DNA of 64,000 nt from Oscillospiraceae bacterium. GTDB taxonomy: Bacteria > Bacillota > Clostridia > Oscillospirales > CAG-272. How positions within the stretch are numbered: position 1 is the stretch's first letter; each line of letters starts with the position of its first letter. The stretch spans positions 2,614 to 66,613 of the forward strand of contig SVRN01000009.1 in NCBI GenBank assembly GCA_015064805.1, written 5' to 3'. Shown here one piece after another: positions 5,551 through 6,189 of the stretch. The notes below the pieces were generated by a model, which saw only the letters and a program-made list of their open reading frames with translations, was not told the DNA's origin and did not search any database. Made by a program: the position numbers and the translations under genes.

Positions 5551-6189
5551 TTATTATTTTTTTAGCAACCGTTTCTACAGCCTCACACTGCACTTCGTGC
5601 GCGTTCGGTGTACCGGTTTTTTATGTTACTTCTTGGTACGCACCAAGAAGTAACCAAGAAATGCGCCCAGGCGTTCCCCCTGGGAACCCCCCGGCATTGC
5701 CGCTCTTCAAAGAGTAGCAGGAGAAAGACATAAGAACTTATTCTGCATCGCTCGCCGTTTTGCCACCACGAGCGGCAGGCAGAGAGAGCAAGAACGTTTT
5801 GCTTTCTTGGTAGGGGCTGGCGCCTCGACAGCCCGTTTTGGTGGCAGGCGCAGAAAACAAAATCGTTTTTGCTGAAAAGTTAGTTAAACCGGGGTGCGTC
5901 GCAGTTGGCAAAAACTTTTTTCTTTTATGCTTGCGTGCGTCTTTCATGTTGGCGTTTTTATTGAAAACGCCAACGCAAAAGCTGAAGATGCTCACTTTCG
6001 CGAAAAAATGAGTGGAGCGACAGCGGAACGACTTTTCGCGTTGCGAGTTTCCAAAGGGCATTAGGCCCTTTGGCGCGTTTCTTCCGCCACTTCTTGCCGC
6101 GTAGCAAGAAGTGGCATCAAACCCGCACAGCGCGGCGCGTCAGCTGTACGCGCGTCCGTAGGAGAAAATGTGGAAAAAAACAGCTAAAC
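5551..6189 (+). repeat. HME copy 3 (used here as the reference copy)
   Basis: Has all core modules in order, plus the REP-2 unit at 5810-5834. It ends exactly at the remB stop codon. Confidence 0.85.

Follow-up and report, generated by a model that had tools for sequence, protein, structure and literature searches.

We analyzed a 64,000-nt stretch of DNA (the window) from an uncultured Oscillospiraceae bacterium, contig SVRN01000009.1, in which a 69-nt unit at positions 5781-5849, here called M1, lies inside one copy of a larger intergenic repeat, here called the host element. Our analysis indicates that M1 is probably a small hairpin cassette that was secondarily added to this resident repeat, and that M1 and two other units, X and Y, probably entered fixed sites in it. 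This interpretation is supported by steps in sequence identity at the unit boundaries, by orthologous sites that are empty, by the restriction of M1 to one lineage, and by the independent existence of its core, a repetitive extragenic palindromic (REP) sequence, in other genomes. An initial annotation, made from the DNA sequence alone, had proposed nested site-specific insertion of four modules; the proposal was supported for M1, X and Y and failed for the fourth, E. The sequence examined comprised about 73 kb from this lineage, and the loci fetched for comparison (L numbers) amounted to about 0.65 Mb in total. Related contigs with orthologous sites came mostly from a single metagenome, JAEIGA01; further relatives were L085, a related species with genes about 82-88% identical, L086, and L029, a different and more distant species.

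Self-BLAST and a MAFFT alignment revealed 13 intergenic copies of the host element, each 0.2-0.8 kb long, which together occupied about 8.4 kb, or about 13% of the window, and filled almost every intergenic gap longer than 400 bp. The copies were located at 746-1286 (c1), 2740-3524 (c2), 5584-6181 (c3, forward strand), 8831-9525 (c4), 18966-19585 (c5), 20754-21485 (c6), 24470-25125 (c7), 30816-31619 (c8), 33012-33637 (c9, reverse strand), 44368-45141 (c10, reverse), 47430-47637 (c11, partial), 58060-58868 (c12, reverse) and 63161-63698 (c13). The repeat family and the modules that had been annotated initially were thus confirmed. A full copy was 0.5-0.8 kb long and contained about a dozen hairpins, with inverted termini of about 40 nt situated behind a G-rich tract (...AGTTTAGCTGAATTTTCAGCAACTTCTTCTACGGAC...) at both ends. 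In c3, the order of the components was a terminal inverted repeat; the C, P, Q and S hairpins; M1; the T, U, V, K and C hairpins; and a terminal palindrome.

M1 was found in five host copies of the window, at 5781-5849 in c3 (forward), 9059-9127 in c4 (forward), 19340-19404 in c5 (forward), 44718-44785 in c10 (reverse) and 58481-58548 in c12 (reverse), and a sixth copy was present just past the right end of the window. These were the copies in which a unit of about 69 bp had been predicted, and its boundaries in c3 were exact; as predicted, the unit was absent from c6-c9, and we found it to be absent from c1 as well. Each M1 consisted of an A/T-rich hairpin, followed by a REP headed by GTAG (REP-2, GTAGGGGCTGGCGCCTCGACAGCCC) and then a tail (GTTTTGGTGGCAGGC in c3; GTTTTGGTGGCAG), and the terminal sequence was ...GGTGGCAG. 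The 5′ part existed as two subtypes, a (c3 and c4) and b (c5, c10 and c12). The REP-2 core in c3 (5810-5834, forward) was a 25-nt GC-rich imperfect palindrome, and the motif GTAG-GGGCTG-GCGCCTCGA-CAGCCC, with a predicted hairpin, was present in all five window copies. Single-strand folding of the units was better than that of shuffled sequences, with z values between -2.6 and -4.9 (-2.65 for the two hairpins of M1 in c3), in agreement with the early description of the modules as hairpin-rich. M1 was also considered as a pair of REPs forming a hairpin (REPIN), and this assignment was rejected because the unit contains a single REP, its other hairpin being A/T-rich and unrelated.

The junctions of M1, X and Y were homogeneous. 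M1 was located directly 3′ of CGGCAG in six of six copies, and its own end was GGCAG; in c1 and c6-c9, which have no M1, GGCAGGCG continued directly into GAGAGAGCGAAATCG. A GGCAGGC(GGA) repeat was present at both M1 junctions, and the 8-10 nt direct repeat reported there earlier is therefore real. Since the sequence 3′ of M1 (GCGCAGAAAAC, ACGAAGAAAC, GCGGGGAAAGC and others) varied in the same manner as the native target in empty copies, the repeat is a core common to the M1 end and its target and not a duplication produced by insertion.

Comparison of M1 with its surroundings revealed a sharp change in conservation at its boundaries, with an identity of 93-98% within each subtype versus 70-86% in the flanks. 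M1 occupied six of the 15 host copies of this lineage versus none of the 17 host copies in JAEIGA01, L085, L086 and L029. Comparison of empty and filled sites between strains, as suggested in the initial annotation, yielded clean empty orthologues for M1 at c4 and c10 and for X at c6. In particular, the orthologue of c4 in L061, where the flanking genes were 96.5% identical, was an uninterrupted GGCAG/ACGAAG, and the orthologue of c10 was empty in L060 (91% identical) and filled and identical in L001-L004.

The 22-nt REP-2 core was found outside this genome at 49 loci from about 20 Clostridia species represented by metagenome-assembled genomes (MAGs), in unrelated contexts; GTA preceded it in 49 of 49 loci, and other GTAG hairpins were often present alongside. 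The relatives that share these repeats were MAGs of uncultured Clostridia, Oscillospiraceae, Acutalibacteraceae or 'Eubacteriales' from the guts of roe deer, sheep, yak, goat and rabbit. In L029, the core adjoined a truncated host element, in the opposite orientation and with a different spacer. REP-2 was represented by six copies in the approximately 73 kb of this lineage, every one of them inside a host element, and by one to seven copies per MAG relative, on fragmented contigs. Neither REP-2 nor a second REP, REP-1, was detected by approximate matching in about 110 kb of L054-L074, L085 and L086. Additionally, many of the REP-2 core matches in L005-L053 were situated within about 130 nt of MAG contig ends, which suggests that repeats of this type fragment short-read assemblies and are hence under-counted.

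X and Y showed the same behavior at other sites of the host element. X was 77-79 nt long, not about 90 bp as first estimated, and was found in the three predicted copies, at 21291-21368 in c6 (forward; between the K hairpin with GGCGCG and TTTCTTCC with the C hairpin), 33458-33536 in c9 (forward) and 58179-58255 in c12 (reverse; between the K and right C hairpins). The predicted location between K and C hairpins did not apply to c9, in which X lay at the mirror-image site at the other end of the element, with the P hairpin on one side and the left C hairpin on the other, and L029 carried X at this same mirror-image site. In all four copies, which represent two different host contexts, X had GGCGCG on its 5′ side and TTTCTTSS on its 3′ side. 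Y was likewise present in the predicted copies and inside the terminal palindrome, with a measured length of 79 nt versus the 81 bp given previously; it was located at 9410-9488 in c4 (forward; right terminal palindrome), 30854-30932 in c8 (reverse; left terminal palindrome) and 58733-58811 in c12 (forward; terminal palindrome at the left end). Its four copies, at right ends (c4 and L056) or left ends (c8 and c12), were always in the loop of the palindrome, with identical junctions and an outward orientation. The identity among copies was 96-100% for Y versus 24-76% in the flanks, and 91-97% for X versus 5-88% in the flanks. The orthologues of c6 in L064 and L069 were without X, and the element at the c12 site in L086 contained no M1, X or Y.

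X proved to be homologous to the reverse complement of Y (z against shuffles of 7.7, versus 0.2 when both had the same orientation), and the two shared a common plan of four hairpins with compensatory stem changes. On these grounds, we assign X and Y to one family of four-hairpin units of about 79 nt, placed in opposite orientations, with the ends CCAKATTTCG...AAAACW; a third member, W, was found in L062, where it occupied yet another host site. Neither X nor Y has a terminal inverted repeat, and neither produced a target duplication; the 5′ targets of X, Y and W, from few copies, were only loosely alike purine runs (GGAAGAAA, GCGAAG and GGAGAA).

We propose that the units would enter the host element in the form of hairpins of single-stranded DNA, moved by a Y1 (HUH) enzyme or by some similar site-specific process, with a REP-associated tyrosine transposase (RAYT) as the candidate enzyme for M1. 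The GGCAG(GC) repeat would be accounted for if the end of each unit mimics its own target. Once units are in place, deletion and recombination among host copies would reshuffle the interior and could give rise to the alternative E and P segments, the exchange of hairpin 'alleles' and truncated copies.

A RAYT-like open reading frame (ORF) was identified in the window at 14774-15364 (forward), with REP-1 inside its reading frame. The ORF contained HIHIM and YIYENP motifs, and its top match in the PDB was E. coli TnpA-REP (4ER8, E 4e-6). The intact ORF had no Pfam match; when two REP-encoded in-frame inserts were removed, Y1_Tnp matched weakly (E 0.004) and NF047646 matched over nearly its whole profile (E 3e-15, 56 bits versus a cut-off of 80 bits). 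The G+C content at third codon positions (GC3) was 0.46 in this ORF versus about 0.75 in the neighboring genes, a low value that fits a recent arrival of the gene. A homologue was also found 1.3 kb from a REP-2 core in L053. REP-1 (GTAGGGACCGGCGTCCCCGACGGTCC) had four window sites arranged as inverted pairs 250-750 bp apart, at 14891-14916 (forward), where it encodes ...VGTGVPDGP... in the RAYT-like ORF, 15143-15168 (reverse), where it follows three tandem 27-nt repeats from 15060, 60508-60533 (forward) and 61258-61283 (reverse). In reverse orientation, the four 27-nt units at 15060-15168 encode (GPSRTPVTD)x4, a stretch situated between the HUH motif and the Tyr motif, and the ORF stays open. 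The early guess of Y1 transposition thus receives support from the RAYT-like gene as far as the REP is concerned, and no result demonstrates an IS200/IS605-type mechanism. The second REP-1 pair brackets about 750 bp, which contained a low-GC ORF of 136 aa (60606-61016, reverse) without a Pfam or NCBIfam match and a GC-rich, hairpin-rich stretch at 61030-61200; part of this bracketed sequence (about 61184-61245) recurs in L085 and L086.

Several observations weigh against nested insertion or against a RAYT as its agent. The REPs within the RAYT-like ORF are REP-1 and not REP-2, and its profile score lies below the NCBIfam cut-off. TnpA-REP requires GTAG and cleaves at CT (PMC8266576), whereas the ends of M1 are CAG; no GTAG was found in X or Y. 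In the approximately 0.65 Mb examined, neither the whole 65-69 nt M1 nor X or Y was found outside the host element, so that the independent occurrence raised as a check in the initial annotation was borne out for the REP-2 core, which is solo in about 20 species, and not for X, Y or whole M1. We saw no autonomous element or parent insertion sequence (IS) with matching ends, and no TnpA or TnpB partner, in the fetched loci, and no Y, X or REP-2 cores in viral contigs. About 20 nt on either side of the M1 site were conserved among host copies, and short-tract gene conversion anchored in these conserved blocks is possible for M1; the higher identity of the units could also reflect constraint rather than youth. 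Moreover, recombination and deletion are frequent and contribute much of the mosaic, and E is an alternative segment rather than an insertion.

E was about 163 nt long, compared with the 130 bp or so estimated initially, and was indeed confined to c5, c6, c7, c8 and c10. Its supposed presence or absence was a substitution: E took the place of the P-hairpin segment, which is about 37 nt long, and the initial 40 nt of E were an inverted copy of the K-hairpin region, from which we conclude that it is an alternative segment. It was located at 19090-19253 in c5 (forward), where it replaces the P-hairpin segment, and otherwise at about 20814-20976, 24528-24691, 31079-31241 and 44873-45035 (reverse). 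The frequent recombination and deletion can explain both these E/P alternatives and the combinatorial distribution of the units.

The same turnover forms the basis of the strongest rival explanation, in which each unit arose once and then spread among host copies and strains by recombination or gene conversion, the presence or absence of a unit being an exchange of variants. We regard this as possible, though less likely than insertion. Whole hairpins, or larger parts, were swapped between orthologues: L064 had a different U-hairpin allele at c6, together with the P segment instead of E, and in L061 the right half of c4 was replaced. In L079 and L082, c3 was replaced by another family member with a type B interior although gyrB was 99.9-100% identical. 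M1, E, X and Y were found in all combinations, the blocks around the M1 site are conserved, as stated above, and the 5′ part of M1 in c4 was identical to that of c3, unlike the own target of c4. The details of the junctions were less favorable to exchange. A marker 8 nt upstream of M1 differed between c3 (GAG) and c4 (GCG), so that a conversion tract would have had hardly any homology to use; the flanks of X and Y diverged up to the junction, with 5-6 nt in common on one side only; and X was found in two contexts with unrelated upstream sequence. Nor can exchange account for how a REP that is also found on its own in other species first came in.

A second explanation treats the long form as ancestral and the copies without units as deletions that arose where short direct repeats, for example GGCAGGCG, slipped or recombined. 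The 8-10 nt repeat flanking M1 is of the expected kind, the units were never seen solo, and real deletions were observed: only about 55 bp of c5 was left in L069, with a deletion junction in GCGC, 220 bp of c6 was missing from the same locus, and the element in L086 was without the left C and P hairpins. However, the observed deletions had irregular ends that differed from the unit boundaries (at c6 in L069, from the boundaries of E), X and Y are not flanked by a repeat that could drive their loss, and the two copies of the M1 'repeat' were different alleles in c4 and c14. The absence of M1 from all 17 host copies of the relatives, including L029, would require many independent exact deletions, and the units were 91-100% identical while their flanks were far more diverged. 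We therefore consider deletion improbable as the general explanation.

We attach similarly little probability to template switching at hairpins during replication, by which a polymerase would jump by microhomology, either to a different copy or to the opposite arm of the hairpin, and copy short stretches without a dedicated enzyme. Such jumps would account for the microhomology seen at the junctions of M1 (CAG or GGCAG), Y (AGC) and W (CATA) and for the first hairpin of M1, which pairs a target-like purine run with its complement, and perfect palindromes with discrete alleles fit templated correction from arm to arm. Nevertheless, the same units, 65-79 nt long and with constant ends, recurred at the same site in many copies, and the REP core recurs in many genomes as a defined entity and carries the GTAG tag of RAYT substrates.

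To place the remaining rival explanation, the structure of the host element must be described. We aligned 21 copies, drawn from the window and from related contigs, and counted the 29 base pairs that were predicted for either strand alike; these were 98% Watson-Crick (591 Watson-Crick, 8 G-T and 2 A-C). With stems so nearly uniform, the G-U versus A-C asymmetry did not reveal a folding strand. The numerous G-U pairs that alifold gave for one strand were part of dubious T/G-rich pairings. Near-pure Watson-Crick pairing argues against selection at the RNA level, and, as far as pairing statistics can tell, the stems point to DNA hairpins rather than RNA. That the elements are structured RNAs, either regulatory or of the ornate non-coding kind, with the units as optional domains kept or lost by function, is very improbable: covariation of the hairpins was abundant (but came down to a small number of discrete stem 'alleles'), 11 of 12 informative copies were antisense to their neighboring genes in a GC3-based gene map, and pyrimidine runs after the K hairpins gave a terminator-like appearance, yet G-U pairs were almost absent, the orthologue of c12 in L086 was oppositely oriented, c10 and c12 (the only copies where this could be read) lay between the terminator of the upstream gene and the promoter of the downstream gene, promoter- and terminator-like matches in c5-c7 were no more frequent than in shuffles, and no Rfam match was found at the gathering threshold over 64 kb or at E<=0.1 in a scan of 6.4 kb with three copies, which returned two chance-level matches (E 0.22 and 0.74).

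Nested insertion of M1, X and Y into the host element accordingly remains the explanation that we favor, and the host element itself is MITE-like, that is, similar to miniature inverted-repeat transposable elements, as shown by its inverted termini, its lack of an ORF and its presence or absence at the c12 site between species. The copies contained no credible ORF, the GC3 of overlapping ORFs was not gene-like, and BLAST against plasmid and phage databases gave no match. No target-site duplication was definable at any end, as the ends of the element fade into G-rich tracts. At the c12 site, L085 had no host element, just a gap of 170 bp that contained a terminator and a promoter, and at the c13 site it had a copy; the element is gained or lost over species-level time and is usually retained at orthologous sites. 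An integron attC reading was rejected: the ends GTTTAGC / GCTAAAC are unlike the core sites RYYYAAC / GTTRRRY, the elements measure 0.5-0.8 kb versus 57-141 bp for attC, and they separate housekeeping genes (dnaN, recF, gyrB and gyrA). A bacterial interspersed mosaic element (BIME) was also rejected, as just one of about 12 hairpins per host copy is a GTAG REP, and this in some copies only.

Further variation of the host element was observed. In some elements, the right half after the S hairpin was of a different kind, type B (GGCAGG..AATTCTA..GTGGAGCGnATGGG...), which ends with a CCCC/GGGG hairpin; it was found at 3247-3524 and 10078-10306 of the window, at the c3 locus in L079 and L082, at 2205-2400 in L029 and at 4617 in L061. 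An additional solo terminal fragment (CTTCTCCTACCCGCGCGCGTACTGCTGCGCGC) was present just beyond the left end of c10 (45140-45200), and L060 was without it. Next to c13, a gene block that includes GntR and an ABC transporter was found in L089 and in L085 and is missing from the window, the MgsA protein being identical between strains; its full extent of about 5 kb was visible only in L085, and homology to the window broke inside the element, at about 63557, which suggests an element-mediated rearrangement.

We compared these elements with known families of small repeats. The intergenic repeats known as ERIC or IRU (enterobacterial repetitive intergenic consensus or intergenic repeat unit) are imperfect palindromes, the long variants of which contain inserts of about 70 bp at defined places in their interior, and E. 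coli BIMEs are mosaics of hairpin motifs. The host element likewise carries units at fixed internal sites; it is 4-6 times longer than ERIC, with terminal inverted repeats in addition to its dozen or so hairpins, and it fills about 13% of the window; unlike a BIME, it is not built of alternating REPs. For X, Y and W, the appropriate comparison is with the miniature elements derived from IS200/IS605, such as those of the PATE type (palindrome-associated transposable elements). The shared features are the lack of terminal inverted repeats and target duplication, differing end hairpins, a fixed orientation and a short conserved adjoining sequence; M1, for its part, always lay 3′ of CGGCAG. The differences are that the 5′ targets of X, Y and W are only loosely alike, that the units have been seen in one host repeat only and that no parent IS was found. 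Compared with MITEs such as Correia or NEMIS, the host element has similar inverted termini of about 40 bp, is non-coding and intergenic, and shows presence or absence at an orthologous site between species, but it is without a found target-site duplication or parent IS, and its copies persist at orthologous sites while the interior turns over quickly.

There are also likenesses to the REP/RAYT systems (REPtrons and REPINs). M1 has GTAG directly before a 25-nt GC-rich imperfect palindrome whose core recurs across genomes, REP-1 occurs as inverted pairs and tandem copies, and a RAYT-like Y1 gene is present in the window. In contrast to those systems, REP-2 is confined here to a unit of 65-69 nt at one host site and is neither scattered nor paired as in REPINs, the RAYT-like ORF holds REPs within its own frame, and the M1 ends differ from the CT sites of TnpA-REP (PMC8266576). 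The host is also a member of the Clostridia, in which Group 1 RAYTs are the only RAYTs noted (PMC5581495). GTAG REPs inside longer palindromic repeats have been recorded in Anabaena, Thermomicrobium and Halothiobacillus, and there are also records of mosaic intergenic arrays (PMC3733652). The pneumococcal BOX, RUP and SPRITE repeats are small modular intergenic repeats that cluster and insert into one another (PMC10969869). Compared with BOX, with its A-B-C modules, RUP and SPRITE, the repeats described here have unrelated sequences and belong to another branch of the phylum, and the insertions involve single fixed sites of one host, with one unit being a REP. Considering these precedents (PMC3733652 and PMC10969869), the phenomenon is of a known kind, whereas this particular host element, the X/Y/W family and a REP cassette at a single fixed site appear to be undescribed so far.

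A bolder interpretation, which we consider speculative and rather unlikely, is that X, Y and W would represent an unrecognised class of ultra-small, single-strand-type mobile units of about 79 nt that are parasites of another repeat only, and that M1 would be a REP that this host has acquired as a site-specific cassette. Rather than mere junk DNA, the host element would then be a maintained chromosomal scaffold that recruits hairpin-binding enzymes, with a cassette exchange resembling that of integrons and acting on non-coding hairpins. The features cited for such a scaffold are the 13% share of local sequence, the retention at orthologous sites, the perfect hairpins that swap as 'alleles' and the orientation relative to genes.

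The window is the chromosomal origin region, dnaA-dnaN-recF-gyrB-gyrA, of an uncultured Clostridia bacterium of the herbivore gut, as shown by the DnaA, GyrB, DnaN, RecF and GyrA genes and a cluster of DnaA-box-like sequences. Pfam searches of the window genes identified DnaA (10338-11738, reverse), GyrB (3533-5509, reverse), a P-type ATPase, a penicillin-binding protein and a CCA-adding enzyme, among others; DnaN, RecF, MreC and GyrA were added from called genes of matching metagenome contigs. The same sequence was present in many JGI and ENA metagenome assemblies, as found by exact-protein look-ups. Between dnaA and dnaN, the region 9702-10030 contained a cluster of five DnaA-box-like 9-mers, each with one mismatch; this region is probably oriC, with host copy c4 on one flank and a type-B element on the other. 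The GC skew of the whole window tracked the gene strand and not the distance from the putative origin, with more C than G on coding strands, and its sign flipped near 32 kb, at a change of gene orientation. About 15 kb of genes (15.5-30.6 kb) would run head-on to a fork leaving the dnaA region. Two other kinds of repeats were noted: a gene of 1144 aa (54572-58006) contained, at 55914-56878, three coding repeats in tandem, each about 290-370 bp long and with an identity of 83-85%, and a third repeat family, of about 140 nt with 82% identity and several hairpins, was present at 29253-29392 (forward) and 39098-39241 (reverse), with one copy upstream of the ATP synthase c-subunit gene (38761-39048, reverse).

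The spread of REPs and hairpin repeats is poorly understood. The REP, the RAYT-like gene and the filled and empty orthologues described here define a donor and a target with which insertion by a RAYT can be tested, and they bring biology of the REP/RAYT type to uncultured gut Clostridia, a group in which it has hardly been described. The nesting has three levels: a REP or a 79-nt unit lies within an element of 0.6 kb, which itself lies within an intergenic gap. Structural turnover at these sites is very fast, occurring between strains that are more than 99% identical in neighboring genes. In practical terms, the host elements break metagenome assemblies, and many REP matches fall at contig ends. 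For the organisms themselves, the host elements mediate the gain and loss of gene blocks and alter the terminator-promoter DNA of core genes, including the oriC region.

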